The notes under the pieces were generated by a model. The model saw only the letters and a program-made list of their open reading frames with translations. It ran no database searches and was not told where the DNA came from. From contig CAZPIN010000089.1 in assembly GCA_964586735.1 (NCBI GenBank), forward strand, positions 1,200 through 65,199: DNA of 64,000 nucleotides, given 5' to 3'. A program made the position numbers and the translations under genes. Origin of the DNA: an uncultured Rhodobacterales bacterium. GTDB taxonomy: Bacteria > Pseudomonadota > Alphaproteobacteria > Rhodobacterales > CAZPXZ01. Of this stretch, positions 7,443-63,173 are shown one piece after another. Position 1 is the stretch's first letter; the number at the start of each line of letters is the position of its first letter.

Positions 7443-7486
7443 CGCAACAAGGATAGCTTCCACACGGCGATGCAACGGAGGCAGTG

Positions 7487-9303: not shown

Positions 9304-9846
9304 TCACAGGGAGGACACTTCGGAGCACGGTGGCAGTTCCTGGTCACGCTGGGACCGTACGGTGACGGTCAGTGGCCACTGAATACCAAGTTCGGGATCA
9401 AGCGCCTGCACGCCGCCCTCGGCTTCCGGCGCGTATGGTGACGAGCAGAAGTACTGCAGCTCGCAATTGGCCGTTAGGGCCTGGTAGCCGTGGGCGAATC
9501 CCTCCGGTACATAGATCGCGTTGCGCGTCTCTGAGTCTAATTCCAGCGAAACGTGCTGGCCAAAACTCTCCGACCCGCTACGCAGGTCGACGATGACATC
9601 GTGCGCGCGGCCGTTCAGCGCCCGCACCAGCTTGCATTCGGCATACGGCGGACGCTGAAAATGCATGCCGCGCAGCGTCCCAGCCTGGACAGACAGGGCG
9701 ACGTTCATCTGCGGCCAGTCGACGTTGAGGCCGGAGTTGGTAAACTCCCTGCTGCAGAAGATTCGCGCGAACATCCCTCGCTCGTCAGCCTTGGGCTCGA
9801 TCAGCACCTCGTACGAGCCGGACAAGGCAAGCGGCCTGATAATCAT
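9304..9846 (-). CDS. RmlC-like cupin sugar-nucleotide 3,5-epimerase
   Basis: 180 aa with RmlC-family signatures (GTLRGMHFQ, AIYVPEGFAHGYQAL). The ATG overlaps the rfbG stop by 4 nt (ATGA at 9843-9846). Confidence 0.75.
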   Translation of the reverse strand: MIIRPLALSGSYEVLIEPKADERGMFARIFCSREFTNSGLNVDWPQMNVALSVQAGTLRGMHFQRPPYAECKLVRALNGRAHDVIVDLRSGSESFGQHVSLELDSETRNAIYVPEGFAHGYQALTANCELQYFCSSPYAPEAEGGVQALDPELGIQWPLTVTVRSQRDQELPPCSEVSSL

Positions 9847-33700: not shown

Positions 33701-33807
33701 TCATGGCGACGGCCAGGAGGCAGATATCTCCAGACGCTTTCGTCCAAGACATTCTGGCCGCGGGCGGCGACGGCAGCCATCGTCGGGGGATCGTCTTGGA
33801 AGACCAT
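30745..33807 (-). CDS. Polyacidic family member D (three tandem ~285-aa modules)
   Basis: The track ORF begins at TTG 33930, which is the TTG of a TTGACA box, so I prefer ATG 33807 (MVFQDDPP...). N cassette: FREGNDLVVVLVDGRQLRVVGCF...ALGRLDEMF. Helix: LGLIVLIIGYLY. Three modules are delimited by GIGEGAWR[DE][LM].[LV]LRQ at ~32500 and ~31640. Ends GTIYVDPDITI. Confidence 0.8.
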   Translation of the reverse strand: MVFQDDPPTMAAVAARGQNVLDESVWRYLPPGRRHEVEGVFREGNDLVVVLVDGRQLRVVGCFANLVSLDAGADACAVAVSAGDWPETALPSADSAIADGEPVALGRLDEMFARRESHSSGDMPFIADWLGLSDQELGLIVLIIGYLYERTSVFGGGDDGGGGLPREQQIVQDLGLEGADETSAEIAVKSFETVFGEEALAALTGNPEEVDDEAKAQIQGLLNIVNAYLNSQNALGEQTVTEDRITYGDGEVVLGLDLTGDGSADVTHTWMPGGAEEKLLAVNVDVEASETIDAVFLLEPAQQTAAIIVAEVDFERDGTGDATLYGDGISFDRLVFDMDDAIEVRDVDAAYLAGVREVSLADNGVTEISITVPQLEALGSGQEDGYTLRINGDSSDIVLVSDGTLERLPRQDRETYRAYSVPGVTIEVDKDITFGIGEGAWRDLSLLRQLSIDVAPPGSSQQAAVKTAEQVLMAYGVLFGTEIIDGLREDPSSAEAEQLAGLQGLARLYGAYLTSGYNLALTERQDRVTLDLDADDDGSTDAVHHWSLSGDVEGALELSVDNNADDTVDAVVVLVIADQDGTALRGQVDFDGDGTAETAVIDGGGDWGSADLVIDRIEFTGNQTVVLATDHARLLGGIKEVQMATNGVTDISISPETLSLLADGDRDGSVDHGYTLTVEADIGDVLALPALSISPDTSQDTTTHRAFSLMGATLLLDRDVTLAIGEGAWREMAVLRQAAVQGANQRNAGWLLESYGALYGAEAMASLRESPDALEPAHLAAIQGMVPLVNTYLQSEYQGKEPTFGVDMDDDGTPDLNVVVFRLDREDDGTVEAIHTWTLDADGQGIIEIAVDQDADTTTDQTLFVSLPGQTGPQLELKMDWSGNGVNDVTLTDGSPIAPGNLVIDSMSLSEELQLTLTDEQARFLAGIRDIQMDGDSTSGTTLAITDAQLTLLADGNGDGSPDQDYELVLRGPSGSIFTPGIGIEAVDIDGTAGADMDDRGLIIYEGTDGTIYVDPDITI

Positions 33808-36603: not shown

Positions 36604-36631
36604 CTGATACAGATTTCTCTCGGCCTGTCAA
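36604..36631 (-). promoter_or_regulatory. Family-type promoter candidate (TTGACA-N16-TATCAG) upstream of member E
   Basis: On the minus strand, TTGACA lies at 36631-36626 and TATCAG at 36609-36604, with a 16-nt spacer. The leader contains GGAGGCAAGATGG and ACCCGCAGCGGCC, echoing the F/G leaders. Confidence 0.35.
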
Positions 36632-37642: not shown

Positions 37643-39043
37643 ATGTCCGGATACGAATGGACCTTCAAGAGCGTATCTCTGCTCAAGAAAATGCATGCCA
37701 AAGGCGCCGCCGCATCCGCCATTGCCAAGGCGATTGGCGGGAACATCTCGCGGAACGCCGTCATCGGCAAGATCCACAGGCTGGGGCTCTCCATGCCCAA
37801 AGCACAGCAGGAGAAACCGAAGGACGACTCCGGGAAGAAGGGAGACCCGTCTGCCAAGGTCGCATCTGCCACGTCCAAGAGGACAGTGCCTGCGACGCCG
37901 CTGAGTGCCTATGTCAAAGCCAAGGTCAAGGCCAAGGCCAAAACCGCGGCTGAAGGCAGCGGCGCGAAGGCCGAGTCCGGAAAGCCGACCGCCGCCAGAA
38001 AGAACCGCCCGGCAAGCGACGCGGCCGCTGCGAAGCAGACCGTCAAGCCAACCGCAGCCAAGACTCCCATCGCCAGCTTGAAACCGCCCGCGGCCAAGCA
38101 ATCCAACACCAAGCCATCCGCAGCCAAGCCCGCCAGCGCCAAGCCACCCGCAGCCAAACCTGCCAGCGCCAAGAAGCCGCTTGCCAAGAGCGCACTCAAG
38201 ATCGACCCCAAGACGGCAAAGCCATCCGCAAAGCCCGCAGCCCCTGCGGCCAAGGCAGCCACCAGCCCCAAGGCAAAAGCAGCAGACAAGGCCGATGCCA
38301 AACCAGCGGCCATGGCCAAGGCCGCCGCGGCAAAGCCGACCGAAATCACTAAGGCGCCCGCCGCTGCGAAAGCACCTGTCAAGAAGGCCAAGACTGTCGC
38401 AGCCACCAAAACATCGCCTGAGAAAAAAAACCTGGCGATGCCAACACCCGCTACCAGCGGCAAGACCGCTGCCAAGCGAAAGCCCTTGGCGGTGCCGGCG
38501 CCCGCCGCGAAAGCACCCGCAAAGATGGCAAAGGCTGCCGCAGCCGCATCAGCCAGGAAGTCGGCTGGAGCAAAAAAGGCAGCCAGAACACCGACTGGGA
38601 AAAAGCCGCTGGCAATGCCAACCGTCGCCGCCAGTGGCAAAACCGCAGCCAAAGGGAAACCCCGGGCGATGCCGGCGCCTGTTGCCAGCGGCAGAAAGCC
38701 CGTCAAGGCTAAGCCCGACGCGAAGTCAACCGCAGTCGCCGCGAGAAGCAGCAATGCCCCGGCCAAGCCGGCAGCCTCCGCCAAACCGAAGTCCAAGGAA
38801 GCGCAGTCGACCGCAGCGGCGGCGAGCCGCGACAGCGCTCCCGACAAGCCGCCGATTCTGGTGTCTCTGGTAGATCTCACCGAGCGCATCTGTCGCTGGC
38901 CCTACGGCGACCCGAAAACTGACGACTTCGGCTTCTGCGGCCGCCCGGCCATGGCCGGCAAGCCGTACTGCGAACAGCACGCCGCAGCGGCGTTTCAGCC
39001 GCCTAGCGCGCGCAGAGAGCGCGGAAGAGTCCGCAACCGCTGA
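37643..39043 (+). CDS. gcrA: GcrA cell-cycle regulator with a ~300-aa Ala/Lys/Pro-rich insertion
   Basis: GcrA N-terminal DNA-binding domain: WTFKSVSLLKKMHAKGAAASAIAKAIGGNISRNAVIGKIHRLGL. C-terminal domain: LVDLTERICRWPYGDPKTDDFGFCGRPAMAGKPYCEQH. A long AKP-rich repeat linker separates the two domains. Confidence 0.85.
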   Translation: MSGYEWTFKSVSLLKKMHAKGAAASAIAKAIGGNISRNAVIGKIHRLGLSMPKAQQEKPKDDSGKKGDPSAKVASATSKRTVPATPLSAYVKAKVKAKAKTAAEGSGAKAESGKPTAARKNRPASDAAAAKQTVKPTAAKTPIASLKPPAAKQSNTKPSAAKPASAKPPAAKPASAKKPLAKSALKIDPKTAKPSAKPAAPAAKAATSPKAKAADKADAKPAAMAKAAAAKPTEITKAPAAAKAPVKKAKTVAATKTSPEKKNLAMPTPATSGKTAAKRKPLAVPAPAAKAPAKMAKAAAAASARKSAGAKKAARTPTGKKPLAMPTVAASGKTAAKGKPRAMPAPVASGRKPVKAKPDAKSTAVAARSSNAPAKPAASAKPKSKEAQSTAAAASRDSAPDKPPILVSLVDLTERICRWPYGDPKTDDFGFCGRPAMAGKPYCEQHAAAAFQPPSARRERGRVRNR

Positions 39044-43233: not shown

Positions 43234-43752
43234 GTTACAGTACCAGCGTGCATGAAGCTTCGAGTACGGCCCGGAAGGCTACACAGCCCACGCCAGCCGC
43301 CTGTCCGGACATCGCTCCCAGCTCACCCGCGGTCGTACTTGGCATTCCCGACACTCTCCCCAGCCAGCCGAAGCCAGCAGTAGTGTTCCAGCAGCTCCTC
43401 CGCCGGCATGTCCCGCAGGTTGGCAACCGCCCTGCTAGTCCGTCCCATCACTTCTCCCCGGCAGTCTTCTCCACATCTATCACCAGCCGCACCGCCAACC
43501 CACGGCGAGAGTTCGTGGGATGCCGCTGTCCGAAACCTTCTCCTTGAGGCTTCTGCTCCTCTCCATCTTCAGTCGCTTCACTCTGTGTACCGCCCGCGAA
43601 TCTGCCTGCAGTACGGCTTTGATACCACGGCCAGAAGCGCTGCCGACTGCAACATTTCCGCAACATAATTGCCCGCCCTTCCATCGCCCAACATGCCAGA
43701 CTAGCGGCAACGGCATCGACCAGAGATGCCATCCATATAATTGGAGCATCCC

Positions 43753-49481: not shown

Positions 49482-50183
49482 ATGCCCGAAGACGTGCGAA
49501 TACTGGTGGCGGAGGACGATTCGGCGCTGGCCGAGCTGCTGCGCTTCAACCTGGAGCACGAGGGCTACGAGACGGTCCTCTGCGCCGACGGCGAGGAAGC
49601 GGCCAGGATGCTGCGCGACTCCCCTCCACGCCTGGCGATACTGGACTGGATGCTGCCGGCCCGGTCGGGGCTGAAACTGTGCCGCGACATACGGGCCAAT
49701 CCGGTGACAGCGGGTATGCCAGTGATGATCCTGACCGCCCGCACCACGGTGGAGGACAGGCTGCGGGGTTTCGACGCGGGTGCCGACGACTACCTGGGCA
49801 AGCCGTTCGAGATGGCGGAACTCGTGTCGCGGGTGAAGGCGCTGCTGAGGCGGGCCGAGGGCTATCCGGCTGGAACGCAGATGGAGGTGGGAGCGGTCAC
49901 GCTCGACCCGGTGCGGCGGCGGGTGCGCAGCGGAGAACGGACCGTGCCTCTGGGGCCGAAGGAGTACGGCATCCTGGAGTGCCTGATGCGCGAGCCGGGC
50001 CGGGTGTACTCGCGGGAGGAGCTGCTCGACGCGGTGTGGGGACCGGACTCGTACGTCGACCCCAGAACGGTGGACGTCAATGTCAACCGCCTGCGGCAGG
50101 CGCTGGTGAAAGGCGGAGGAGGTGGACTGATACGCACCGTGCGGCTGGGCGGCTATGCCATCGATGACCTTGACGCCGGCTAG
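49482..50183 (+). CDS. phoB: Phosphate-regulon response regulator (OmpR family)
   Basis: Receiver domain (ILVAEDD...ILDWMLP...ILTARTT) plus winged-helix domain (LGPKEYGILECLMREPGRVYSREELLDAVWG...RTVDVNVNRLRQAL). Last gene of the pst-pho operon. Confidence 0.9.
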   Translation: MPEDVRILVAEDDSALAELLRFNLEHEGYETVLCADGEEAARMLRDSPPRLAILDWMLPARSGLKLCRDIRANPVTAGMPVMILTARTTVEDRLRGFDAGADDYLGKPFEMAELVSRVKALLRRAEGYPAGTQMEVGAVTLDPVRRRVRSGERTVPLGPKEYGILECLMREPGRVYSREELLDAVWGPDSYVDPRTVDVNVNRLRQALVKGGGGGLIRTVRLGGYAIDDLDAG

Positions 50184-50253
50184 CTTGGCGGTCTCCACTG
50201 AATCCAGATGGACCGTCGAAGAAGCGTGCGCTTCGATGTACATGACTCGGGGC

Positions 50254-50401
50254 TTGACACCTCTGATAGCGCCACTATGATGTGCGCGCTTGCCAGCGGG
50301 CAACCGATTCGGTACCCGCACTGGTGGCAGCAAGGCAAACTGCGGGATGCCGCTGGCGGATGCTTTGATTCGGCAGCCGGCGCCTGAAACAGGAGAACAC
50401 C
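50254..50401 (+). promoter_or_regulatory. Family promoter (TTGACA-N16-TATGAT) plus conserved ~115-nt leader of member F
   Basis: GGGCTTGACAC (TTGACA at 50254-50259) and ACTATGATGTGCGC (TATGAT at 50276-50281). The 16-mer GGTGGCAGCAAGGCAA at 50323-50338 sits in the loop of a CCCGCA/TGCGGG stem. RBS and start context: AGGAGAACACCATG. Confidence 0.5.
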
Positions 50402-53400
50402 ATGACCTTCGCCCAACTCGACGCGAGAGCGTCCATCACCCTTTCCGACAACATGGAAGCTGTACTTTTGCCAGTGCAGCCGAACCAGATTGAGCGCACC
50501 TACAGGGATGGCGACCATCTGGTGGTAGCGCTGGTCGACGGCAGGGAACTGCTGCTGGAGGGGTGGTTTAGCAGGCTGGAGGAAGGAAGCGAGGTCGCGC
50601 TGCTGGCGCGTGACGGAAGTACCGGCGAAATCGTAGCGGTAACCATCACCGAGACCGGTGAGTATGCCAGGACGCAGCCCGTCGCCCTGGGCCGTCTGGA
50701 GGAAATGTTTGACGCCGATGCCAACGCCATCGAGGAGGCGCTGCAGAAGGTCGGGGTGTCCGCGCAAGCCAGAACCGCGGCTGAGGTATTCACCCCTGAA
50801 CTCACCGCGGCGGCGATTGTAGGGGGCGTGGTCCTGGTAGCGGCCGTGGCGTTTATCGAAGAGTCCGAGGGGGAGCCCGAGCAAGCCGGGGCCGACAGGC
50901 CCGCAGTCACCGTTACTGCCGTTGACGATGATGGAGACGGAACCCCGGACGACAGCAACAACGACGGCACTCCGGATTTTGTAGACATCGACCCAGGCTC
51001 GGACGGCACCACGGACTTCAGGGTGGAGACAGCAGCCGAGCGGGTGGAAGTTTTTGGGACAAGCTACGAGCTGGATGGTAGCGGGGTGCAGCAGATAAGG
51101 TCAATCGCGCAGCCGGTGGCAGGCATCGAGACCATTCAAGAGGTCGATCTGGGCACGGACGGCAGGCCAGTTGCTATGAGCGTCCACAGCTCGGCGCTGG
51201 ACGAACTGGCGGGTACCGCCAGCGATGCCTACAGCCTGACCGTCGTGGGGGGCAGCGACGACCAGATAGCGTTTCTGGATGGCATCGTGTTCCAGGTGGA
51301 TTCCGGTACGACCGGCTTCAATGTCTACCAGGACCATCGCGGAGCGCGGTACGTCGTCGATGAGGATATCGACGTTGCGGGTGCTGGCTTCTACGAGTCC
51401 CCTCTTGCCGCGATCGTCGGCAAAGTGGAAGATGGCATAGTGGAAGACATCAATCTGGTCATGGTCGGAGCAACCGACGTTGGCGATGCTATCTCGGACA
51501 ATAACCTTGAGCATTTTCACACGCTGCTGGAAGCCATTCGGGACGCATCGGCCAGCGCAGCGGGAGCGGCGGTGAGCAGAAGCATCGCCGTGCCCGCGAA
51601 TGTACCGGCGCTGGACGACCTGACAGAAGGTGATCTGGTGAAGCTGGCCGGGTACGTCAACGACTACGTGCAGGGCAGCGACGACAGCGGCGACATCAGC
51701 ATGACCGCGTCCATCACCGGGCGCACGCTGACCATGACCGTCGAGGACGGGGATGGAACCGACGACAAGGATGTGGAGATCGTGTTCGCCACTGCGGGCG
51801 CGGGGCAAACAAGCCTGGACGCGGCGGTGATCACCCAAAAACGGGACACGGACGGCGATGGCAGCGTAGACCGCGTCAGCATCGACGGGACCACCGGCGA
51901 GGCTGCTGACGGCACTGCAGACCAGCACGAGGATTTCGAGTACGACTCCGATGGTAGCGTAACATCGAAAAGGCTGGATACGGATGCGGACGGCACACCC
52001 GATGGCAGTGAAACCTTCGCGTATACGAACGGGGCCACCCGAGCGGAGCGAGACTCCGACAACGACGGCACTCCTGATCGAATCTCGCATGATGCTGACA
52101 GCGACGGCAATGCCGAGCTCATCGAGCATGACGACGATGACAATGGCACCATCGACCGCACCGAGCATGATGCTGACAGTGACGGCACGCCGGAGCGGAT
52201 CGTACACAACGCCGATGCGGCTGGCGTCAACGTGCGCACCGAGGATGACGCCAACGACAATGGCACCATCGAACGCACCCGGCACGACGCCAATGGCGAT
52301 GGTACGCCGGAACGGATCGAATACGACCAGGATGAAAACGGCACCATAGACTTGACGACGTCCGATTCCGATGGAGACGGATATGCCGATCTGTGGGAAT
52401 GGGACACGGATGAGGATGGCACCGCTGACTTTAGAGGCTACGACACGGACAACAACGGCACCGTGAACTACTACGAGAATAGATTTGATCGGGGCGGCGC
52501 GCAGCTCCGATTCGACTACGACCGGGACGAAAACGGCACCATCGACCTGACTGCATTCGACTCAGATGGAGACAGGCGAGCGGAACTGCTGCATTTCGAC
52601 ACGGACGAGGACGGGACGCCGGAAGCCACGGGATACGACACGGACGATGACGGCAGAGTGAACTACTACGAGATCGACTCCAATCAAGATGGTACTCTGG
52701 ACGGCTACATCCTGGACGAGGACGACAACGGCTCACCGGACTTCTCGCAGGTTGACAGCGACCAGAATGGAGTGTTCGAGTCTGCCACACGTTCCCCCGA
52801 CGCCACGGGGAGCAGGGTTATCCGAGTCGACAATCTGCTGGTCACTCAGCCCTCCGAAGTAATCAGCTATGACCGGCTTGGAAGAATTTCCGCCATTAGC
52901 GTCGACTCGGACCAGAATGGCACCGCCGAAGAGCACCAGACCTATATCTACAACTCCTTTGACCCTCTGGGAAGGGTGGTGGAGGATGCGGCCGATTCAG
53001 CGTTGGATGAAGGGGGAATAGACGGCTCCCTCGACGACATTCACTACTATTTCCATGGTGCCTATATCCCAACTTCTGCAGACGGGCAGGTGCGCGTTGT
53101 GACGGCGGCTAACCCGCAGAGCGAGGGGGGGCTTCCCACGGGCATTGCGATCGACTTTAACGGCGACGGCACAGTGGATGCAGAGGGAGCGCCAGCTGTA
53201 AACGTTGAATCAGTTAGCGAGGACGTCAACGGAACCACTACGGATCTGCTCAATCAGCCGTCAATACAGACCGTGTTCTTCGAGCCGGACGACACGGTAC
53301 GGGACCCGGAAAACCCGTACTGGGTTGAACACTTGGTACACGGCTATACCGGCAACCTCCTTCATGCAACGGTCATTGCGGGCGACTCCATCTATATGCA

Positions 53401-54244
53401 TGGCAGTTTCGCCGCGATCAATATGGCGTACACGTATGGGACCATCGACAGCCAGCCGGACAGCGATCTGCACGTGTCCCGAATCCAGTACGACGTAACC
53501 CATGGTATAGGGGAGGACGCGACAGTGGACCGCGAGTGGGGCGAGGCGTACTCCTATACGCTGACGACAGGTCCCGATGAAGTCACCCAGATCATCGACA
53601 CGATCAGGAAGGATGTCTTCTCAACGGACCATGACGGCACGGCGGATCCCGACCGGACCGAGCTGTATCATTACGACGAGAACGGCATGATCGAAAGCGT
53701 CGAGATTGACAGCGTCGGCACCGACGGAACCGGTACTGCCGACGGCACGTATGACAGCACCGAGACGTATTTCTACGGCCCCGGCGCTTTCTATGACAGC
53801 TATCGCGATACCGGAAAGATGTTCGTCTACAAGACCGTGGACGATGACCGCGACGGGACGGCGGACAGCCTGGATTTTGCCAACGGCGTCACCTACAGCT
53901 TTGCGCCTGGCGCGGATGAGTTGGACGCTCTGGTTGGCATTGCCAGTATCAACCTGTCCGGCACCGCTGACGACCCCGCCTATCCAGCCATTCTGATCGA
54001 CGGCGTGACCACGTTGACCATAACCGACGAGGTGCTGTCAGCGCTTGCGGACCGCGATGGCGACGGCACCGCTGACACCGGCTACACCCTTACCATCGAC
54101 AGCGACGGAACGAACGATGTCGTACGGATCGGAGCCGGCATTGAAATGGTGGCAGGTAGCGACGATGGCGAGGGCCGCGTTTACCATCAGGGAACCGACG
54201 GAGTCATCTACATCGACCCGGATATCACCGTGGAAGCGGTATAG
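50402..54244 (+). CDS. Polyacidic family member F
   Basis: 1280 aa. N cassette: IERTYRDGDHLVVALVDGRELLLEGWF...ALGRLEEMF. Helix: AAIVGGVVLVAAVAFI. An internal C-cassette-like copy lies at ~51135-51385. A 13-residue-period DxDxDG array spans ~51843-52785. Ends GVIYIDPDITVEAV. Confidence 0.85.
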   Translation: MTFAQLDARASITLSDNMEAVLLPVQPNQIERTYRDGDHLVVALVDGRELLLEGWFSRLEEGSEVALLARDGSTGEIVAVTITETGEYARTQPVALGRLEEMFDADANAIEEALQKVGVSAQARTAAEVFTPELTAAAIVGGVVLVAAVAFIEESEGEPEQAGADRPAVTVTAVDDDGDGTPDDSNNDGTPDFVDIDPGSDGTTDFRVETAAERVEVFGTSYELDGSGVQQIRSIAQPVAGIETIQEVDLGTDGRPVAMSVHSSALDELAGTASDAYSLTVVGGSDDQIAFLDGIVFQVDSGTTGFNVYQDHRGARYVVDEDIDVAGAGFYESPLAAIVGKVEDGIVEDINLVMVGATDVGDAISDNNLEHFHTLLEAIRDASASAAGAAVSRSIAVPANVPALDDLTEGDLVKLAGYVNDYVQGSDDSGDISMTASITGRTLTMTVEDGDGTDDKDVEIVFATAGAGQTSLDAAVITQKRDTDGDGSVDRVSIDGTTGEAADGTADQHEDFEYDSDGSVTSKRLDTDADGTPDGSETFAYTNGATRAERDSDNDGTPDRISHDADSDGNAELIEHDDDDNGTIDRTEHDADSDGTPERIVHNADAAGVNVRTEDDANDNGTIERTRHDANGDGTPERIEYDQDENGTIDLTTSDSDGDGYADLWEWDTDEDGTADFRGYDTDNNGTVNYYENRFDRGGAQLRFDYDRDENGTIDLTAFDSDGDRRAELLHFDTDEDGTPEATGYDTDDDGRVNYYEIDSNQDGTLDGYILDEDDNGSPDFSQVDSDQNGVFESATRSPDATGSRVIRVDNLLVTQPSEVISYDRLGRISAISVDSDQNGTAEEHQTYIYNSFDPLGRVVEDAADSALDEGGIDGSLDDIHYYFHGAYIPTSADGQVRVVTAANPQSEGGLPTGIAIDFNGDGTVDAEGAPAVNVESVSEDVNGTTTDLLNQPSIQTVFFEPDDTVRDPENPYWVEHLVHGYTGNLLHATVIAGDSIYMHGSFAAINMAYTYGTIDSQPDSDLHVSRIQYDVTHGIGEDATVDREWGEAYSYTLTTGPDEVTQIIDTIRKDVFSTDHDGTADPDRTELYHYDENGMIESVEIDSVGTDGTGTADGTYDSTETYFYGPGAFYDSYRDTGKMFVYKTVDDDRDGTADSLDFANGVTYSFAPGADELDALVGIASINLSGTADDPAYPAILIDGVTTLTITDEVLSALADRDGDGTADTGYTLTIDSDGTNDVVRIGAGIEMVAGSDDGEGRVYHQGTDGVIYIDPDITVEAV
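51843..52785 (+). repeat. Coding array of DxDxDG loops with ~13-residue spacing in member F
   Basis: Example: DSDNDGTPDRISHDADSDGNAELIEHDDDDNGTIDRTEHDADSDGTPERIVHNADAAGVNVRTEDDANDNGTIERTRHDANGDGTPERIEYDQDENGTIDL... About 20 or more loops can be read off the translation. Confidence 0.8.
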
Positions 54245-55406
54245 CGGCAGGCCGATCCAGTCACCGCTTGGGTCACCGCCCCGTCCGGGGCCGTAGCTGT
54301 CCAAGGCCCGCCACGCGGAAACCGCCCGGCATTTGCGGCAAGGTTTCTCGCCAGCTATGGCGCACCTCGGGCAATATTCGGAAGCTTGCTGCAGGCGCGG
54401 GTTGGCATAGGTGAGGAAATCTGCCTCTCCCGAGTAGCTGCCTCGCGGCGGCCAGACCGTCGTTCAAGTGGGGGAGCGCGGCGTACGCCGTTTCTGCCGG
54501 AACCAGCAACGCCGCCTGCCGCAGGCGGTGACAGAAAGGATGCTGGCCACTGTGCCTGCAGGCCGCGAAACGGGAGCGGGCGAGCGGCGCAGGTCGGCAT
54601 AGGTACCGCAGCCTGATCGTCTCCCGGATGCCCAACGCATGGGCAAGAACACCCTATAGCCACCGCGGGAAGTTCAGCGTCTCCATCGACAGATGAAGTG
54701 GAGCGAAAGCCGGGATGCCTGGCTTCGCTGCTGCGCAGAGTGCGCTCTCTGCACCCTGCGCATCGAGGGAAACGCGCGCCTTGTTCTGGTCGGGGAAGAT
54801 GTCGGCTGGAGCAAGCGCAGGGATGGCCTGTCTCGGATGTTCCCATATCTCACCGCGGGCCGTGGCCGAGAGTCGCTGGCGCACTGTCGGGGACAGCGGA
54901 AGGCAGAGGAGGGGTTCCCTTCCATACGCGCCCCGCACGCCTTCGGGCGCGGCGGGTACTCGCCGGACGGCATTGCGGACCGACGCCCGCATCGCGACTT
55001 CCTTCTTTACCAGCTACCTGAGTCTGGCATCTGGCGCATCGAGTGTCGATTCAAAGTCAGCGCAGGGGACACAGTACAACCCACACGGCCCTTACGAATC
55101 GGTGCCTGATCGTACTGCACCGCTCAGCTGGCATCTGTCCGTACACCACGCCGTTCAGGCATGAGGCGGATGCGAAGTCCTTGTGCGGGGCGATGCTGTT
55201 GCCGCAGGCTTACGCTCCGGTCAGTGGGCCCCTTGAGGCATCGGCCCTGCGGCGCGGTGGCGTCTTGGCCCGGTCTAGTTGCTTGTGGAATATGGCATTA
55301 TTGAGAAAGCCGTCGGAGTCAGTTGGTGCCAGATAGCATCGAGTCGATCGGCAGGGCCAGCTGGACAGACGAGGAAGCGAACGCTATGGTATCTCGTCAG
55401 ATGGGC

Positions 55407-55556
55407 TTGACACGCCCATGTGCGTTACTATGATGCGCACACTCACAAGCGAATCGCCGACGCGGCCCTAGCGTCGGTGGCAGCAAGACAACCCGCAGGG
55501 GCCCGTTCGCGGGTCCATACATCTGGCCCCTCCAGTGCCAGAATAAGGAGAACACT
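55407..55556 (+). promoter_or_regulatory. Family promoter (TTGACA-N16-TATGAT) plus conserved ~115-nt leader of member G
   Basis: GGGCTTGACAC (TTGACA at 55407-55412) and ACTATGATGCGC (TATGAT at 55429-55434). The 16-mer GGTGGCAGCAAGACAA lies at 55476-55491, 42 nt after the -10 box exactly as in F. Followed by an ACCCGC...GCGGGT hairpin. RBS and start context: AGGAGAACACTATG. Confidence 0.5.
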
Positions 55557-58500
55557 ATGTCCTTGTCACAACTCGACTCCCAGCTCGACATGAGAGTGCC
55601 CACCGCCCTTCCCGACGGCTTGGATGCCGTGCTTCTGCCAGTGCATCTCGACCAGGTCGGGCGAACCTACAGGGACGGCAACCACTTGGTGGTAGTGCTG
55701 GCCGATGGTAGGGAACTGCTTCTAGAAGGGTGGTTTGTCAGGCTGGAAGAAGGGAACGGGGTCGCGCTGCTGGTACGGGACGGAAATACCGGCGAAATCG
55801 TTGCGCTCACCATCTCCGAGACCGGCAAGTATGCGGGCGCGCAGCCCGTCGCGCTGGGTCGCCTGGAGGAGATGTTTGGCGCCGACGCTGACGCCATCGA
55901 GGAGGCCGTGCAGAAGGCCGGGGTCCATGCGCTTGTGGCAACCACCCCTGAACTCACCCAGGCGATAATAGTCGGAGGCGTAGTCTTGACCGCGTCCGTG
56001 GCCTTTATCACACAGTCCGAGCGTGAGACCGGTACGGGAGTGACTGTCACTACCGTTGACGATGACGAAGATGGCACCTTCGAGCAAATCATGTATGACA
56101 ACGACAGCGACGGCACCATAGACCGTACCGAGTACGACGACAACGATGACGGCTCCATCGACCGCACCGAGCACGACTCAGACGACAACGGTACGGCCGA
56201 TCGCACAGAGTACGATGCCAACAACAACGGCAATCCAGAAAGAATCGTGTACAACGCAGACGGGGCTGGCGTCAACGTACGAAGAGCGTTTGACACCGAC
56301 GACAACGGCTCCGTCGATCGCACTGAACACGACGCCGACGGCGATGGCACACCGGATCGAATTGTGCACAACGCAGACGCGGCGGGCATCAACGTACGCA
56401 CTGAGCATGACGCCGATGAAGACGGCACCTTCGAACGCACCGAGTACGACGCCGATGGCGACGGTGCGCCGGAGCGGATCGCGCATGACGCCGACGAGGA
56501 CGGTACTGCCGAACGCACCGAGTATGATACGAACGACAACGGTTCCATCGACCGTACCGAGCATGACGACAACGGCGACGGCACGCCGGAGCGGACTGTG
56601 CACAACGCAGACGCGGCTGGAGTCAACGTGCGAACTGAGCACGACACCAACAGCGACGGGACGCCAAACCGCACCGAGTACGACGCCGATGGCGACGGCA
56701 CCCCAGAGCGCACCGTTTACGACGACGATGACGATGGCATAGCCAACAGCACCGAGTACGACGACAATGACGACGGCACCGTCGAGCGCACCGAATACGA
56801 CGACGACGCAGACGGCACCCCAGACCGCACCGAGGATGGTCCCAGAAGTGTCGTTCTCAGAGGCCCGGAGCTCAGCACTGAGCAGGCCGAGGCGGCGCTG
56901 CTGGAAGCCGCCGGCACAAGCGTTGACGGGACGCAGGAGGCAGCGATTCGGGCGCTGGCTCGGGCGATAACGCCCCGCGGTCTCGACAGCGTGCATGCCG
57001 CCGAAATTGGCACCACGGGCGGATATGTGGAGTTCGACATCGACGGCGACGGTACCGCCGACCAGCGCTCCGAACTCGAGTGGGCGCAGGATTCGTACGT
57101 TCTGCGCACGGAGAGAGTGGACCTCGACTACGACGGAACGTTCGAAGCGGACCTCGTCAGGGAATGGTCGTCTTTCGACAGCGAGGGACGCCCAGCGGTG
57201 GAGACAGTCGACGAAAACGCCGACGGCAGCGCGAACCGCCATATGCAGCATGTCTATGACGATCAGGGACGCGTGGTAGAGACGAGGATATCGACCTATC
57301 AGGCTGCAGGCTTCGACGGAGCGGCGGTGGACCCCGAGTCCTTTGTCAGCGCAATGTTTCAGGTCGAGATTGACACCAACGGCGACGGTACGGCCGAGAC
57401 CTTCCAGGTGACGAATCCCAGAGGGAGCATCGCCGTGGCAGATGGCGTAATTGTGGTCAACCTGCAGGCGCGCGTTCCCAAATCAGATCCCCAAGGCAGC
57501 GCGTTCACGGAAAACCGGGGGCCGGACTATTCAGCCGTTGACACGGACGATCTGGAAAGCGTCGTGCTGGTGGACACCAACGACGATAGTACGCCGGACA
57601 GGGTCTATCCAGTCATACAGGCCATAGAGATCGATGGCACCAGCCACGCCCTGTATTATGACTTTAGGCGTGACAACGGGCTGGTCGGCGTACACAGGCA
57701 TCAGGAGCAAACCCTGCACATTGACACTGACGGAGATGACACTCCGGACAAAGTCTACACTGCCAGGAATGGCAGGATCGTGGTTGAAAATGTCTACACG
57801 GACAATGACGGTACGATTGTAACGGAAGAAGTGGAGTACACGCCGTTTAACGCCATAGACTATGACGGCACCGTGGTCAGGGTTTCCGAGTATTCCGGCG
57901 ACCTCGCCGTGGAGGGTGCGGTACTGACCTTTGTTGACGGAACCATGACCGCTGCGGCCATTGACGGCGCGGCAACGCAGGTTGCCAGCGGCACCATTGA
58001 AAGCATAGCCGTTGACGCCACTGCCGAGGAAATCGTGAAGTATGCATACGGGACCGCGGGCGGAAGCCAGGAAGCGGCCGACAGCGAGGACATGGCGGAG
58101 CATCTCATATCGACCAGCTACGACTACGACGCGGACGGTACCGCCGAGCGGGTCGACAGGTACGAGCGCAACGACCGGGGCCACATCATCAAGGTCGGGT
58201 ACGACTTAAACGGCGACGGCACGGCCGAGCGCAGCGAATCCTATCTCCTGCGGGATGACTGGATGCGGGGTACGGAAAACAATGTCGCCCGGGAATTCGT
58301 GAGCGCGCGGCGGGGCGATATCGACGCCCTGGACATTATTGATCAGTCCGAGCACCGGGAAGTTGCCGCGGCGCTGCAGCGCAACCTATTTTCGGGTGCG
58401 CAGATCGCCGCCATACAGTACGACGACAACGATGACGGGACAACGGATCGAGTCGAGCGCGTAAGCTATGACGACGCCGGCCGTCCAGCTGCAGTCCAGG

Positions 58501-61500
58501 TGGATCTCGGCTTTAACGGCACCGTGGACCGCACCGAAGCCTACGGCTACAACGACAAGAATCAGATTGTCAGCGCCCGGTTTCACGAGGGCGACAATAC
58601 GGACGATGCGCATTATCTCGAGCAGATCTACGCATATGACGAATATGGCCGCATGTACCGGATCGAGAGCCATACCAATGGCGACGGCACGGCGGAGGAA
58701 GTCCGCAGTTTCGAATTTGACGACCAGGGCCGTATCAGCGCGTACAGGCTGCAGTCCGGCCTTGAGATTCAGTCAGAGACTGACGGAGCTGGATTCACGC
58801 GGGTTGCCGTTTATGGCGTAGACCACACGGAGGAGTTCGAGCGCAACGAGCTTGGCCAGATCGTCAGATCCCAGACCCGCGTGGAGGACGCGGACCCCGA
58901 TGGATACAGGCCGTTCATCGAGTATGAGTGGGACGGTCAGGGACGGTTGGTAACGGAGCGCCACGACATATTTGATCTGTCACAGCTTGATATCCCGCTC
59001 CTCCCAGGCCTTCCTCCCCCACCGCCATCGCCGCAGGCTTTCGAGCTGGGTTTTGAATACGAATACAACGCCGCAGGGCAGGTCGCCAGACGCGTCGAAC
59101 TTGTGAGCGTGGACGGCACGCTTGAAGAAAAGGCGGCGACCAGATTCGAGTATGACGATCTTGGCAGGCTTTACCTGAAGACTGTCGAGGGGGAAGCCGA
59201 ATTCGGCAACGGCAGGCCGACCACCACCAGCTTCTATGCCAGCGGGAGCTACTTTGCCTTTCGGAAGTCGCTGGCCAGCGAAGTCGCGTACCTTGAGGAC
59301 TATCTGGGAGCCGACGTTGGAGGCGACCGTCTGTCGGACACCGCGGGAACCGACGGCAGCGCGGGCGCCGACGGTACGGCGGACGACTTGTGGGGAGTTG
59401 GCGACCGGTTCGCCGACGCGAACAGCGACGGGAGGCCAGACGACGTCTGGCACGACCGCGACGGCGACGGAACGGCAGACGATTTCTGGAGAGACAACGG
59501 CTACCTGCATAGTGATGGCTGGGTGGAATTCAGCGACAGATTCGCGGACGGCACGCCGGACGATTTCTGGTCCGATGTCAACGGCGACGGCAATTATGAC
59601 GATTTCCTGCCAAATCTTGTAACGTTCAATCCTGGCGACAGAATTGCGTACAACCACCGCGGGGTAACCATCATTCATCCCGGTGACGCGATTGTTGATA
59701 TTGGAGGTACCACTGATACGGGCATGATTGGATCTGACGACAGGCACGTCATCGACGAAAGCAATGTGATTGCGGTTGCCTCCGGCTTCGTGAGGGTCAC
59801 CGATTCCGATGGCATCCGTACGATTTACGGCGGCGGCACATCGTTTACCGTCGGCGAGGGCGACTGGCTCGCCATATCCAATGGCGCCAGATTTACCGTC
59901 GACGGCGGCAGCGACATAACCGTTTGGCAGGCGAGCTCGATGGTCATCAGGGCCGATGGCACAATTTCCGTCAATCCCGACGGAACCAATGACATCAGGC
60001 CAGACGGCGTTCCAGATGAAAATCCGGACGGCACTCCCGACATGTTCCCTGACGGCACGCCGGACATCAACCCCGACGGCACGCCGGATGACTTTCTTGG
60101 AGCATATGACCTGGACGGCAACGCGATCGGCGACGGCATTCCGGACCTGGTCCCCGGCGTATCCGATGGTACGGCAGATCCGGTTTCCGACGGAACGGTG
60201 GACGATTTCTTTGACGCTGACGGCACTCCGGGAGCGGACGGCACTCCCGATGACGCGGCTCCCGACGGAACCCCCGACCGCGGCTCCGACGGAACGCCAG
60301 AGAGGCTGGTGTTCAGCCATGCTGGGGACCTCACGGTCGACTCGGATTTTTTCGATCCGGCGCGGATCGCCGGCATCAGGGAGATCCATCTGGCGGGAGA
60401 ACGCCTGACGCACTCCATAGGCACAAGATTCGAGATCGCCGACGGGTTTCTGATCGACCTTGCGGAAGCCGGCTCCGCCGACGGTCCGGTGGAAATCGCC
60501 ATCCATGGCCACCGCGCATACTTTGACGCGGACGACGCCATCGCGTTCGAGGGAGATGGATTCCGGCGGGTCCGCTACGACCATGGCGGAAACAGCCTCT
60601 ATGTCGATTCGGACGGCAACAGGCTTCTCGTTGAGCGGGAAGACGTCGCAGTTTCGACGACGTTCACCAGAATGGTTCCGGAGCTTGTCGCGGCGGCCAC
60701 CAGCGGCGCGCTTACGGCGGCGCTTCTCAGAAGCGCAGGGATTGACGTCGCTGCCGAAACGGCCGTCAACAACGCCGAAAAGGTCATTGCCGCTTACGGC
60801 ACGGCCGTGGCAGACATCGATGACCCGGATGCGCGGAGCCTGCTTGAGCTCATCATGACGGACTCGCTGCCCGAGTATGTGAGGCCGTACGCCGCCCTTA
60901 CCGGCGCAAGATACGACGCTTCAGGAGAATTTCTGACGCTGTACATCAACGACGGCGGAGACGCCTCGGGGACGGCTGACCGGACCGCCAGGATCACCTA
61001 CGATGCCGACAGGGGCGGTCTTGCGGTATCGGCTGGATTCTTCCTTGGCGACGACGAGGATGGCGTTCAGCTCTATGGGGACTGGGTGGAAACCTATGCC
61101 TACAACCCCGACAGGAGCATGGTTACTACGATAGAGGCAGGCGGCGAGACTATTGGCCATCTGACATACAGCCTAGACGCTTTCGGCAACACCCTTAGCG
61201 ACGGCACTCCGGACGGTCTGGCGTTGCATGGCGACCTTGTGCTGGACGCGCACTTCGCGCAGATTCTCTCCGGCAACGGCATCAGCGTTATCGATATGGA
61301 CCGGCATATCCCCGAGCGCCCGTTCCAGGCTGCGGAAACTGGGGGGGTCTACACGGACGACGAGGGGACGGAGCAAACCTACGAGGGGCGCCCCGAGGTT
61401 TCCGCCCGGGACGAAGTTGAAGGAACCGCCGCGCATCTTCATCTCTCCGTCGAGTCGCTGGCCGTGCTGGCGGACGAAGACGGTGACGGTACGCCCGACC

Positions 61501-63173
61501 CCGACTACACGCTCGCCATTCATGGCGACCAGTCCGACACGCTGACTCTTTCGGGAGACTTTGTCAGGGCATGGGAGCTTGACAGCCTTCTGCCGTCGTT
61601 TGACGGCTTGAACGAGCGTTTCCACGCCTATCGAAGCGCGTCCGGCGTTGTTCTGGTGGATCCCAGCGTGTCAACCCGGATGGAAAGCCTTCTGGCCACC
61701 ATTTTTTCAAATGAGATAACGCTTCCTCCAGTCGGAGGGGGCGACGCCGTAACCCGCATTGACACCCCCGTTACCGACACCAATGGCGACGGTACGCCCG
61801 ACGCAGGAGACGGCACGGTCGACCGCTTCGAGTATGGCAGCGTAGCAGTGCAGATTGATGACGTAGTTGGCAGCAATCCGGTTCAGTTCAGAGCATACAC
61901 GGACGCCAACAATGATGGCGTATACGATATCTTTGGCCTCGACGGCACGCTCGATACGGACACCAACGGCGACGGCACGCTCAACGCCGATGTCTTTGGC
62001 TCCCGCGACGGCACGCTCGATACGGATACCAACGCCGACGGCACGCTCAACGGCGATCTCTTTTTCGGCGGCGACGGCACGCTTGATTCCGACACCAACG
62101 GCGACGGTACAAACAACGCCGATATCTTTGACCATCGCCCAGACGGTACGCTTGATACGGATACCAATGGCGACGGTGCGCTTGACGCCGACGTCTATGG
62201 CGGCGAAAGCGACGGCACGCTCGATACGGACACCAACGGCGACGGCACGCTCAACGCCGATGTCTTTGGCAGTGCCGATGTCTTTGGCAGTAGCGACGGC
62301 ACTTCGCGCGATGGCAACGATGGCATGCGGGACATAGATACCAACGGTGACGGCAGGCGCGACGTCGATCTCTTCATCGGCAAAATCGGCGACGGTACGC
62401 TCGATACGGATCTCAACCACGACGGTACGCTCGACTTCGACAATCAGGGTATCCCGGTACTCACGGATTGGATGTCTTCCAGATATCACTTTCAAGATGA
62501 GACGCCTGGTTCCGACGGCATAATTGACCGCGTGGAGCTGCGGCCTGCCCGCGTGGTACAACTGACCGACACCGACGGCGACGGCACCTTCGACCGCGTG
62601 ACCGAGGAAAGGGACACTGACCGGGACGGTACCTTCGACCGCATCGAGCACGCCGTTTACGACCAGGCGACGTTTGACGGCAACCTTGACGGTACGCTTG
62701 AAAGCGAATTCAGGGTCGTTTACCGGGAATACGACGACGACGCCAATGACGACCTTGACCGGGTGGTGTTCGAAAGCGGCCTTACCTATTCCCTGGACCT
62801 GACAGTGGCCAAGGCCGCTGACTGGGCGGGAGTCAATCGCATCACGCTGTCCCGCGGAGACACGGGCGAGACAACCCTCACGCTACCGCCGGACGCGTAT
62901 GTCGCAACCAGAGGGGATGTCCTCTCCGCTACCAGCGCTATGGCCTCAGAAAGGCGGCTGTGGATTGACGGCGATGAAAACGACACTGTCCAGATAGAGT
63001 TGGGGAGCGGCACGAACGAGTTCACGGCCGTAGACAACGACAATGACGGCACAGTGGATAACGTCAACGGCTATCACCGTTACTCCGCCACAATTGCCAA
63101 CAGCGGCGGAATGCAAATAGCCTATGACCTCAGGATTGACGCGGACATCACCGTCGTGGACATAACGCCCTAG
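55557..63173 (+). CDS. Polyacidic family member G (largest copy)
   Basis: 2538 aa. N cassette: VGRTYRDGNHLVVVLADGRELLLEGWF...ALGRLEEMFG. Helix: AIIVGGVVLTASVAFI. Several distinct repeat arrays are present, and two internal C-cassette-like copies lie at ~60373-60655 and ~61428-61683. Ends AYDLRIDADITVVDITP. Confidence 0.85.
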   Translation: MSLSQLDSQLDMRVPTALPDGLDAVLLPVHLDQVGRTYRDGNHLVVVLADGRELLLEGWFVRLEEGNGVALLVRDGNTGEIVALTISETGKYAGAQPVALGRLEEMFGADADAIEEAVQKAGVHALVATTPELTQAIIVGGVVLTASVAFITQSERETGTGVTVTTVDDDEDGTFEQIMYDNDSDGTIDRTEYDDNDDGSIDRTEHDSDDNGTADRTEYDANNNGNPERIVYNADGAGVNVRRAFDTDDNGSVDRTEHDADGDGTPDRIVHNADAAGINVRTEHDADEDGTFERTEYDADGDGAPERIAHDADEDGTAERTEYDTNDNGSIDRTEHDDNGDGTPERTVHNADAAGVNVRTEHDTNSDGTPNRTEYDADGDGTPERTVYDDDDDGIANSTEYDDNDDGTVERTEYDDDADGTPDRTEDGPRSVVLRGPELSTEQAEAALLEAAGTSVDGTQEAAIRALARAITPRGLDSVHAAEIGTTGGYVEFDIDGDGTADQRSELEWAQDSYVLRTERVDLDYDGTFEADLVREWSSFDSEGRPAVETVDENADGSANRHMQHVYDDQGRVVETRISTYQAAGFDGAAVDPESFVSAMFQVEIDTNGDGTAETFQVTNPRGSIAVADGVIVVNLQARVPKSDPQGSAFTENRGPDYSAVDTDDLESVVLVDTNDDSTPDRVYPVIQAIEIDGTSHALYYDFRRDNGLVGVHRHQEQTLHIDTDGDDTPDKVYTARNGRIVVENVYTDNDGTIVTEEVEYTPFNAIDYDGTVVRVSEYSGDLAVEGAVLTFVDGTMTAAAIDGAATQVASGTIESIAVDATAEEIVKYAYGTAGGSQEAADSEDMAEHLISTSYDYDADGTAERVDRYERNDRGHIIKVGYDLNGDGTAERSESYLLRDDWMRGTENNVAREFVSARRGDIDALDIIDQSEHREVAAALQRNLFSGAQIAAIQYDDNDDGTTDRVERVSYDDAGRPAAVQVDLGFNGTVDRTEAYGYNDKNQIVSARFHEGDNTDDAHYLEQIYAYDEYGRMYRIESHTNGDGTAEEVRSFEFDDQGRISAYRLQSGLEIQSETDGAGFTRVAVYGVDHTEEFERNELGQIVRSQTRVEDADPDGYRPFIEYEWDGQGRLVTERHDIFDLSQLDIPLLPGLPPPPPSPQAFELGFEYEYNAAGQVARRVELVSVDGTLEEKAATRFEYDDLGRLYLKTVEGEAEFGNGRPTTTSFYASGSYFAFRKSLASEVAYLEDYLGADVGGDRLSDTAGTDGSAGADGTADDLWGVGDRFADANSDGRPDDVWHDRDGDGTADDFWRDNGYLHSDGWVEFSDRFADGTPDDFWSDVNGDGNYDDFLPNLVTFNPGDRIAYNHRGVTIIHPGDAIVDIGGTTDTGMIGSDDRHVIDESNVIAVASGFVRVTDSDGIRTIYGGGTSFTVGEGDWLAISNGARFTVDGGSDITVWQASSMVIRADGTISVNPDGTNDIRPDGVPDENPDGTPDMFPDGTPDINPDGTPDDFLGAYDLDGNAIGDGIPDLVPGVSDGTADPVSDGTVDDFFDADGTPGADGTPDDAAPDGTPDRGSDGTPERLVFSHAGDLTVDSDFFDPARIAGIREIHLAGERLTHSIGTRFEIADGFLIDLAEAGSADGPVEIAIHGHRAYFDADDAIAFEGDGFRRVRYDHGGNSLYVDSDGNRLLVEREDVAVSTTFTRMVPELVAAATSGALTAALLRSAGIDVAAETAVNNAEKVIAAYGTAVADIDDPDARSLLELIMTDSLPEYVRPYAALTGARYDASGEFLTLYINDGGDASGTADRTARITYDADRGGLAVSAGFFLGDDEDGVQLYGDWVETYAYNPDRSMVTTIEAGGETIGHLTYSLDAFGNTLSDGTPDGLALHGDLVLDAHFAQILSGNGISVIDMDRHIPERPFQAAETGGVYTDDEGTEQTYEGRPEVSARDEVEGTAAHLHLSVESLAVLADEDGDGTPDPDYTLAIHGDQSDTLTLSGDFVRAWELDSLLPSFDGLNERFHAYRSASGVVLVDPSVSTRMESLLATIFSNEITLPPVGGGDAVTRIDTPVTDTNGDGTPDAGDGTVDRFEYGSVAVQIDDVVGSNPVQFRAYTDANNDGVYDIFGLDGTLDTDTNGDGTLNADVFGSRDGTLDTDTNADGTLNGDLFFGGDGTLDSDTNGDGTNNADIFDHRPDGTLDTDTNGDGALDADVYGGESDGTLDTDTNGDGTLNADVFGSADVFGSSDGTSRDGNDGMRDIDTNGDGRRDVDLFIGKIGDGTLDTDLNHDGTLDFDNQGIPVLTDWMSSRYHFQDETPGSDGIIDRVELRPARVVQLTDTDGDGTFDRVTEERDTDRDGTFDRIEHAVYDQATFDGNLDGTLESEFRVVYREYDDDANDDLDRVVFESGLTYSLDLTVAKAADWAGVNRITLSRGDTGETTLTLPPDAYVATRGDVLSATSAMASERRLWIDGDENDTVQIELGSGTNEFTAVDNDNDGTVDNVNGYHRYSATIANSGGMQIAYDLRIDADITVVDITP
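56050..56840 (+). repeat. Coding array of DxDxDG loops with 13-residue period in member G
   Basis: The unit [TE(Y/H)D(A/D)(D/N)(G/D)DGT(P/I)(E/D)R] is iterated ~20 times. It is interspersed with the variant ERIVHNADAAGVNVRTEHD, which is also present in F. Confidence 0.85.
59973..60305 (+). repeat. Pro/Asp 'PDGTPD' micro-repeat array in member G
   Basis: NPDGTNDIRPDGVPDENPDGTPDMFPDGTPDINPDGTPDDF...VSDGTADPVSDGTVDDFFDADGTPGADGTPDDAAPDGTPDRGSDGTPE, with units of 6-9 residues. Confidence 0.8.
61941..62294 (+). repeat. Five tandem 66-69-nt coding repeats plus a perfect 18-nt micro-duplication in member G
   Basis: Units start at 61941, 62007, 62073, 62142 and 62211 (DGTLDTDTNGDGTLNADVFGS...). The first 60 nt of units 1 and 5 are identical. 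GCCGATGTCTTTGGCAGT occurs twice in tandem (62256-62273 and 62274-62291). Confidence 0.9.

Follow-up and report, generated by a model that had tools for sequence, protein, structure and literature searches.

We analyzed a 64,000-nucleotide (nt) stretch of contig CAZPIN010000089.1 from an uncultured Rhodobacterales bacterium (hereafter, the window). The GC content of 62% and the gene content, which includes gcrA, argF/argD, and a pstSCAB-phoU-phoB operon, identify the window as part of an alphaproteobacterial chromosome. It harbors a family of genes for large Asp-rich proteins, here named A, C, D, E, F, and G, and a remnant named B. This study concerns two giant, adhesin-like paralogs, the 3.8-kb gene F (positions 50402 to 54244) and the 7.6-kb gene G (55557 to 63173), and a 16-nt motif (16-mer) in their leaders; all F and G features are on the plus strand. 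F starts 218 nt downstream of phoB (49482 to 50183, plus strand), the last gene of the pst-pho operon, whose product matches the Pfam models Response_reg and Trans_reg_C. This gene provides context and lies outside the F/G cassette described below.

Promoters and leaders of F and G

Upstream of F, a -35 box TTGACA (50254 to 50259) and a -10 box TATGAT (50276 to 50281) are separated by a 16-nt spacer. The boxes of G (55407 to 55412 and 55429 to 55434) have the same sequence and spacing. Both promoters (50254 to 50281 and 55407 to 55434) conform to the sigma70-type pattern of TTGACA, a spacer of 16 to 18 nt, and TAnnnT, and both boxes are invariant in an orthologous leader from a related species (L004, see below). 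They are the sole 11/12 sigma70-like matches in the 64 kb. They look strong, as described in an initial annotation of this DNA. The alphaproteobacterial housekeeping consensus, as known from Sinorhizobium meliloti, is CTTGAC-N17-CTATAT. With GCTTGACA...CTATGAT and a hexamer spacer of 16 nt, F and G match it closely. A well-kept -35 box is typical of alphaproteobacterial housekeeping promoters, and other family genes likewise have TTGAC(A/G/T). Thus, the promoter part seems ordinary and not "private."

If transcription starts ~7 nt past the -10 box, the predicted 5' untranslated regions (UTRs) of F and G are ~114 nt (50288 to 50401) and ~116 nt (55441 to 55556) long. Both contain the 16-mer GGTGGCAGCAAGRCAA, composed of the 12-mer core GGTGGCAGCAAG and [GA]CAA. 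It is present as GGTGGCAGCAAGGCAA in F (50323 to 50338) and as GGTGGCAGCAAGACAA in G (55476 to 55491). The 16-mer begins 42 nt past the last -10 base in F, G, and the L004 ortholog, and its distance to the AUG is 63 to 79 nt. The F and G copies are the only matches in the window with fewer than three mismatches; when up to three were allowed, five matches were found vs 1.1 expected. F and G also have a common start context including the Shine-Dalgarno (SD) sequence, AGGAGAACACYATG, i.e., AGGAGAACAC[CT]ATG (AGGAGAACACCATG at 50391 to 50404 in F and AGGAGAACACTATG at 55546 to 55559 in G). In these respects the initial annotation was confirmed: the promoters, the 16-mers and their 42-nt distance, and the identical start contexts are located where it had placed them. 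The gap between GGGCTTGACAC and CTATGATG, however, is 14 nt and not 15 nt as annotated; the N15 pattern had no match.

A blastn comparison of F with G returned a single collinear high-scoring segment pair (50250 to 50879 vs 55403 to 56031, 72.5% identity). It spans the -35 box, the leader, and the first ~160 codons; beyond it, F and G share internal Asp-rich repeats only. The coding part of the block is an N-terminal module, which in F (50402 to 50879) comprises a BapA-prefix-like domain and a hydrophobic helix and has its homolog in G at 55557 to 56031. The two modules are 71% identical at the amino acid level, and their third-codon-position identity of just 68% indicates that the duplication is old. 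An ungapped match of 23 out of 29 positions (50204 to 50232 vs 55357 to 55385) was found 20 to 50 nt upstream of the -35 box. It contains a putatively functional dyad at the left side of the shared block, which reads GAAGCG-TG-CGCTTC in F (50221 to 50234, core AGCG-N2-CGCT, ~60 nt upstream of the predicted transcription start site [TSS]) and AGCG-AA-CGCT in G (55376 to 55385). Since the homologous block, which extends from about -85 to codon ~160, is contiguous, most of the F/G resemblance is explained by paralogy. The alignment shows that the F/G cassette corresponds to the 5' end of a single old duplication, which includes the dyad, the predicted promoter, a putative leader of ~115 nt, the SD/start region, and ~160 codons. 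The annotated view that F and G share one promoter-leader cassette was thus borne out by the contiguous segment pair; a promoter and leader common to paralogs are ordinary. A phoB remnant upstream of G was also considered and rejected.

The 16-mer in a related species and its possible role

The family was missing from the first protein databases; relatives were therefore sought by phoB synteny, via PhoB homologs in Logan metagenome contigs. Two contigs (L002 and L003) were identical to the window. Two others (L004 and L005) represent a related species with a PhoB that is 89% identical. In this species, phoB is followed after 217 nt by an F ortholog, the N-terminus of which is 77% identical. 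No family gene was present after phoB in L006 and L007 (PhoB identity 79% and 76%, respectively). The 16-mer of F is identical to that of L004/L005 at 16 of 16 positions, and G differs at one purine position. A check proposed in the initial annotation, conservation of the 16-mer in a family leader outside the window, was thereby passed.

In an alignment of F, G, and L004, 44% of the 222 upstream columns were invariant. Four conserved islands were detected in the leader region: the -35 box, the -10 box, the 16-mer, and the SD/start region. Outside the islands, identity was 0.43 to 0.59 in all three pairings, corresponding to a nearly saturated background of ~55%; for the predicted 5' UTR of F, the range was 0.51 to 0.59. 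The longest invariant run was the 12-nt GGTGGCAGCAAG, followed by GGGCTTGACA (10 nt), AGGAGAA and TATGATG (7 nt each), and AGCG and CGCT (4 nt each); a GGGC upstream of the -35 box was invariant as well. Permutation of the invariant columns yielded P = 0.015 for a run of at least 12 and P = 0.012 for a 16-column window with at least 15 invariant columns. The retention of the motif at equal spacing in a related species, amid drifted flanks, indicates purifying selection and makes a regulatory site probable. As judged from this alignment, the 16-mer is a phylogenetic footprint. It is a genuine leader motif, undescribed so far and maintained by selection, and is documented in only three sequences of one uncultured lineage. 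A short leader element that is strictly conserved in two giant genes and across species offers a concrete, mutable handle for probing post-initiation control in such a lineage.

The nature of the 16-mer is well supported, and from its properties we infer how it may act. It is not palindromic, and it occurs in differing local hairpin contexts in the three leaders, with no common stable fold; it is therefore most likely read as sequence. We tentatively favor the reading that the 16-mer is a cis-element of the F/G lineage whose sequence is recognized, once transcription has initiated, by a trans-acting factor. A strong housekeeping-type promoter would supply constitutive initiation, and the factor would recognize the 16-mer in the leader RNA or in the elongation complex. 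A possible target is the nascent leader RNA, bound by a small RNA (sRNA) or an RNA-binding protein that controls translation or stability. Through the common 16-mer, F and G would be subject to shared control after initiation. Of the options in the initial annotation, a protein- or sRNA-binding site is still the best for F and G, but it does not hold for the whole family.

Several points weigh against a sequence-read element. With only three independent sequences (F, G, and one ortholog) to compare, conservation reaches modest statistical support (P of ~0.01 to 0.02). That the 16-mer is transcribed would follow from a TSS predicted from promoter geometry. No candidate trans-factor or antisense partner was identified in the analysis. 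Moreover, in each of the three leaders, most of the motif's 5' half (GGUGG) is base-paired according to the predictions, which is less than ideal for an accessible site, and the RNAalifold model, with its pairing and five compensatory pairs, leaves some room for an RNA-structure role, although such a role is unlikely.

The initial annotation had considered an RNA structure, for which we found little support. In Rfam searches, a tRNA was the sole match in the whole window, and the leaders gave only noise at E ≤ 10 (4 to 18 bits vs cutoffs of 38 to 70). Minimum free energy (MFE) z-scores of the leaders were inconsistent (-1.2, -2.6, and, for L004, +1.8). The consensus structure had energies of -30.1, -12.1, and -23.0 kcal/mol vs MFEs of -51.4, -49.3, and -37.8 kcal/mol, and was thus worse by 15 to 37 kcal/mol. 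Nevertheless, the RNAalifold consensus of the three sequences proposed two helices, one between the 5' half of the motif and the first transcript bases and one between its 3' half and AUG(A/U)CCUUG, with 88.6% of the cells paired and five compensatory pairs, a result reached by 9 of 500 shuffles. These are exactly the helices of a structural hub or translational switch, in which GGUGGC would pair with the transcript start and GCAAGRCA would sequester the start codon until a signal is received. Slid controls were only 34 to 44% paired, C-to-U and A-to-G changes in F preserve wobble pairs in the 5' helix, and the sole variable base of the 16-mer (R) could covary with the first base of codon 2 (A/U). 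As a partner of the start region, the motif window also ranked 1st, 2nd, and 4th among about 90 leader windows. However, in addition to the unfavorable energies and z-scores, the duplex of the 16-mer with the start was no better than those of shuffled 16-mers (p = 0.52, 0.05, and 0.21), the covariation term was -0.09 kcal/mol, and the model was derived from the same three sequences used to test it. We therefore consider a switch unlikely. A leader peptide encoded by an upstream open reading frame (ORF), with GTG GCA GCA AGR CAA read as V-A-A-R-Q or TGG CAG CAA as W-Q-Q, is scarcely credible. Three isolated substitutions in or beside the motif (AGG/AGA, GCG/GCA, and GGA/GGG) are all synonymous third-position changes in the GTG frame, but the GTG has no preceding SD, stops follow at 9, 14, and >39 codons, the ATGATG frame is interrupted by an in-frame TAG in G, and the ATG candidates lie inside the -10 box. 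The amino acid identity between F and L004 is 56% in both frames, favoring neither.

The 16-mer might instead be read as double-stranded DNA. Bound by a factor at about +35 to +50, it would serve as an operator for roadblock repression or modulation of the promoter, and the fixed 42-nt distance from the -10 box would reflect helical phasing. Conservation as sequence only would fit such an operator, as would the lack of insertions or deletions (indels) between promoter and motif in three lineages (indels occur downstream) and the conserved dyad AGCG-N2-3-CGCT ~60 nt upstream of the TSS, a possible partner site. However, the 16-mer has neither a dyad nor clear direct-repeat symmetry, and its nonpalindromic sequence makes a classical dimeric operator less likely; an indel-free distance of 42 nt is weak evidence; and no regulator gene is adjacent. 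A putative Pho box is absent too: GCAACAT-N4-GCAACAT had no match near F or G at up to three mismatches. Both the operator and the phasing appear improbable. It also seems quite improbable that the motif has no function of its own and that the islands have persisted by chance after an old duplication or were produced by short gene-conversion tracts, with only promoter and SD mattering. The small number of sequences and the P values mentioned above would allow this, and conversion between F and G, which are 5 kb apart, is possible. Yet the motif is intact in the ortholog of another species despite ~57% identical flanks, it is the longest invariant run and exceeds the -35 box, and a 16-nt conversion tract at exactly one spot in two genomes is unlikely.

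Some further candidates were compared with the leaders. CcrM GANTC sites, with a density of 4.4/kb in the window, were not enriched there, and the Sigma54, CtrA, EcfG, and RpoH consensus sequences, compared by eye, did not fit. An antisense partner in the E-D spacer was rejected; GGCAGCAAGAC at 34109 is a chance-level 11-mer match inside a hairpin stem, in a region without structural signal.

Other family leaders and the gene neighborhood

In the initial annotation, the cassette was ascribed to the whole family, and strings resembling the F/G motif were quoted for E, B, D, and A. These strings are present, but their similarity to F/G is not above chance. With blastn-short, the upstream regions of A, B, D, and E matched F, G, and L004 with E-values of at least 0.16, and local-alignment shuffles gave p values between 0.03 and 0.87 (12 tests). 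GGCAAG has a 6.7% chance of occurrence in any 120 nt, and the quoted strings vary in their spacing from the -10 box (+3 in E, +9 in B, and about +55 in D vs +42 in F/G). Two details of the annotation needed correction: the TTGACA of D is at 33930 to 33925 instead of 33929 to 33924, and the sequence available upstream of A comprises 118 nt, not 60 nt, since A starts with the ATG at 119. We then analyzed 11 non-F/G family leaders, namely those of A, C, D, and E and seven related metagenome leaders (L010, L012 to L016, and L018). In these, the best ungapped matches to the 12-mer, the 16-mer, and GGCAGCAAG were no better than in dinucleotide shuffles (Fisher combined p = 0.66, 0.91, and 0.99, respectively). 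The motif is thus not enriched outside F/G, and a private cassette of the whole family was not borne out. Among the leaders compared, the 16-mer is shown to be restricted to the F/G lineage.

Other lineages have conserved leader sequences of their own. The E promoter TTGACA-N16-TATCAG (36604 to 36631, minus strand), which is not part of the F/G cassette, is kept in E-lineage orthologs as GTGACTTGACA-N16-TATCA, and GTGACTTGACA...GTATC..TTG is kept in L014 and L010. In contrast, the stretch of E that had been likened to the motif, GGAGGCAAGATGG, is not kept in the orthologs (GAGTGCAATATGG in L014 and GCGT-CATGGAG in L010). The C lineage has its own promoter and leader, conserved in the ortholog L015. 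Two collinear blocks are common to E and G, namely GG[AT]GGCA(GCA)AGA and ACCCGCAG[CG]GGCC, with chain-alignment p values of 0.005 to 0.18 depending on gap costs. This is a weak hint, compatible with a very old leader homology.

A family-wide motif coordinating all paralogs A to G, as GGCA(GC)AAG or a core GCAGCAA, is very unlikely in view of these data. GCAGCAA is present in the A (-31), E (-30), F, and G leaders, and it ranks first in intergenic enrichment among 1075 7-mers of similar count, with 8 of 17 copies in the intergenic ~12% of the window. In addition, the D, E, F, and G leaders account for 4 of the 12 window copies of G[GC][AT]GGCA(GCA)AG. However, these definitions were picked after seeing the data, the copies are on both strands, their positions differ by at least 45 nt, and the combined p values are 0.66 to 0.99 in the 11 other leaders. 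Furthermore, the E orthologs keep neither string (GTAGCAA and CAGCAGC; GAGTGCAAT and GCGT-CAT). When orthologous leaders are taken into account, the seemingly family-wide motif falls apart, and the "private cassette" is mostly a co-inherited 5' end, which makes it a calibration example.

Intergenic GCAGCAA copies, e.g., at 88 (+), 6648 (-), 13410 (-), 34109 (+), 36530 (-), 50327 (+), 54392 (-), and 55480 (+), are mostly located beside family genes, on either strand. The 13-mer GCAGCAACAAGCC in the A leader (88 to 100, plus strand) has an exact inverted copy at 6636 to 6648 (minus strand), 330 nt past the A stop codon and in the leader of a TylF-like methyltransferase gene (ATG at ~6671), so that two copies bracket gene A. 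The chance of such a 13-mer extension among the GCAGCAA copies is ~0.03. In one metagenome contig (L018, 809 to 890), a perfect (AAAGCCTG)x10 octanucleotide array is located ~110 nt upstream of P0136 (2327 amino acids; ENA ERZ25067590). It looks like a simple sequence repeat of the phase-variation type in an adhesin promoter region.

Besides F and G, the family comprises A (119 to 6307, plus strand; product P0151 with 2062 amino acids) and, on the minus strand, C (29237 to 30607; 456 amino acids), D (30745 to 33807), E (34341 to 36500), and the frameshifted remnant B near 15220. In B (15045 to 15220), the family motif QIERTYRDGDDLVVVV (from 15134) is out of frame with the ATG at 15220, and stops follow. 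C was assigned by its N-terminal sequence and its ortholog P0126. It is directly downstream of D and contains ...LDGSELVLEGYFS...LGRLEEMFG in its N-terminus; the gene order E-D-C has a syntenic counterpart on Logan contig SRR26493823_80429 (P0122, a gene for 1044 amino acids, and P0129). The N-termini of A, D, E, F, and G match the BapA prefix-like domain models PF22783 and NF033677 with E-values of 1e-3 to 6e-6, scores that are below threshold (19.7 to 26.4 bits vs the Pfam cutoff of 27, and 20 to 26 vs the NCBIfam cutoff of 35). No RTX nonapeptide repeats were detected by Pfam in A, D, E, F, or G; HemolysinCabind is present in one distant relative of the family, P0136. The window ORFs scanned include no ABC, membrane fusion protein (MFP), or TolC component of a type I secretion system (T1SS).

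A profile of the F/G N-terminus matched just 46 clusters among 1.84 billion representative proteins, with F, A, and D among them, indicating that the family is rare and lineage-restricted. A GTDB genome scan with this N-terminus returned a single weak planctomycete match. In further searches for relatives, no match was obtained in a JGI metagenome protein scan, in word-indexed protein searches with the F N-terminus or the family alignment, or by tblastn against PLSDB. A metagenome DNA pattern search for the motif yielded two chance matches, one of which is a galE 3' end encoding WRWQQGNPQG. There (L008, 842 to 865, minus strand), the extended pattern matched the part encoding ...AWRWQQGNPQGYV*; in this frame, the F/G leaders read (H/R)WWQQGK and RRWQQDNPQG. 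We regard the peptide likeness as coincidental and as a product of the pattern searched for.

The interval from phoB to the F promoter (50184 to 50253) has no predicted terminator-like hairpin, and transcription of the pst-pho operon might continue into F. F adjoins phoB also in the relative with 89% PhoB identity, whereas those with 79% and 76% lack this arrangement. Upstream of pstS (~80 nt), GCAACAT-TTCC-GCAACAT (43649 to 43666), a direct repeat with an 11-bp period, has no second copy in the window; it may be the Pho box of the lineage. The F-G spacer (54245 to 55556; 1.3 kb, 64% GC) has no ORF with a coding-like GC content at third codon positions, and a pseudogene in it was rejected, as there was no Pfam match. 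It contains, at 54513 to 54529, a perfect 17-nt inverted copy of a near-palindrome in the 3' part of phoB (50086 to 50102). The GcrA homolog (37643 to 39043, plus strand; 466 amino acids) has a very long insertion separating its conserved ends, with the 155-position Pfam model stretched across residues 5 to 459. A rhamnose/deoxysugar cluster (6639 to 13374) adjoins A and encodes a dTDP-sugar epimerase, NAD-dependent epimerases/dehydratases, a nucleotidyl transferase, TylF-like and CmcI-like O-methyltransferases, and a GT2-TPR glycosyltransferase. It could serve the modification of a surface polymer or of the adhesins.

Comparison with known systems

In mycoplasma vlp-type surface families, a conserved promoter, 5' UTR, and N-terminal leader are fused to divergent passengers. 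Similarly, the F/G block covers the promoter, the UTR, and an N-terminal export/anchor module and then ends, and the passengers differ. In contrast to vlp-type families, only two members share the block here, their 72% identity gives no sign of ongoing conversion, and the F/G promoters have no phase-variable repeat.

The 16-mer was also compared with the ops/JUMPstart element of Escherichia coli and Salmonella. The E. coli ops12 (GGCGGTAGCGTG, consensus GGCGGTAGnnTG) is recognized by RfaH on the non-template strand, which requires T6 (flipped out and specifically read), a C3:G8 pair, and a pyrimidine at pause position 11 (PMC5995543). An ops element and RfaH also serve the operon of Salmonella pathogenicity island 4 (siiA-F), which encodes the giant T1SS adhesin SiiE (PMC6272769). 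By analogy, the F/G motif on non-template DNA would pause RNA polymerase and recruit a NusG-family antiterminator, enabling transcription of the full 3.8 kb and 7.6 kb. Like ops, it is a single nonpalindromic element of ~12 nt in the leader of very long surface/secretion genes, in a putative giant T1SS-type adhesin context, and it is conserved as sequence and not as fold. GGTGGCAGCAAG matches ops12 at 7 of the 10 specified positions (G1, G2, G4, G5, A7, G8, and G12), a weak match, given that it was noticed among comparisons with several known motifs. Unlike in ops, however, F, G, and L004 have a C at position 6 (G5 being present), position 3 is T, so that the C3:G8 pair would be T.G, and pause position 11 is A (G12 being present). 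The host is an alphaproteobacterium, and no NusG-like (NGN/KOW) protein was found among the ORFs scanned in the 64-kb window. The strong SD of F and G is atypical of RfaH targets. By these differences, the F/G motif is not a member of the ops family and could only work like one; even this is not likely. A more novel reading, in which the 16-mer belongs to a new class of leader signals that mark the giant adhesin genes of this uncultured alphaproteobacterial lineage for a post-initiation factor of their own, is very doubtful; one example would be an ops-like non-template-strand element with a different code (GGTGGCAG vs GGCGGTAG) that recruits an undescribed NusG-family antiterminator. To our knowledge, full-length expression of multi-kilobase repetitive adhesin genes is little understood outside the enterobacterial ops/RfaH paradigm.

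For the favored reading, a sequence-read leader element, the sites bound by the sRNA GcvB offer a comparison. These C/A-rich 5' UTR sites, located 45 to 57 nt upstream of the AUG, double as translational enhancers. Unlike such sites, the F/G motif has no identified sRNA or protein partner, its 5' half is G-rich and predicted to be paired, and it is 63 to 79 nt from the AUG. It resembles them in that CAGCAAGRCAA is short, conserved in sequence, partly unpaired, A/C-containing, and far upstream of the SD, and in that the same site would be present in several coregulated mRNAs.

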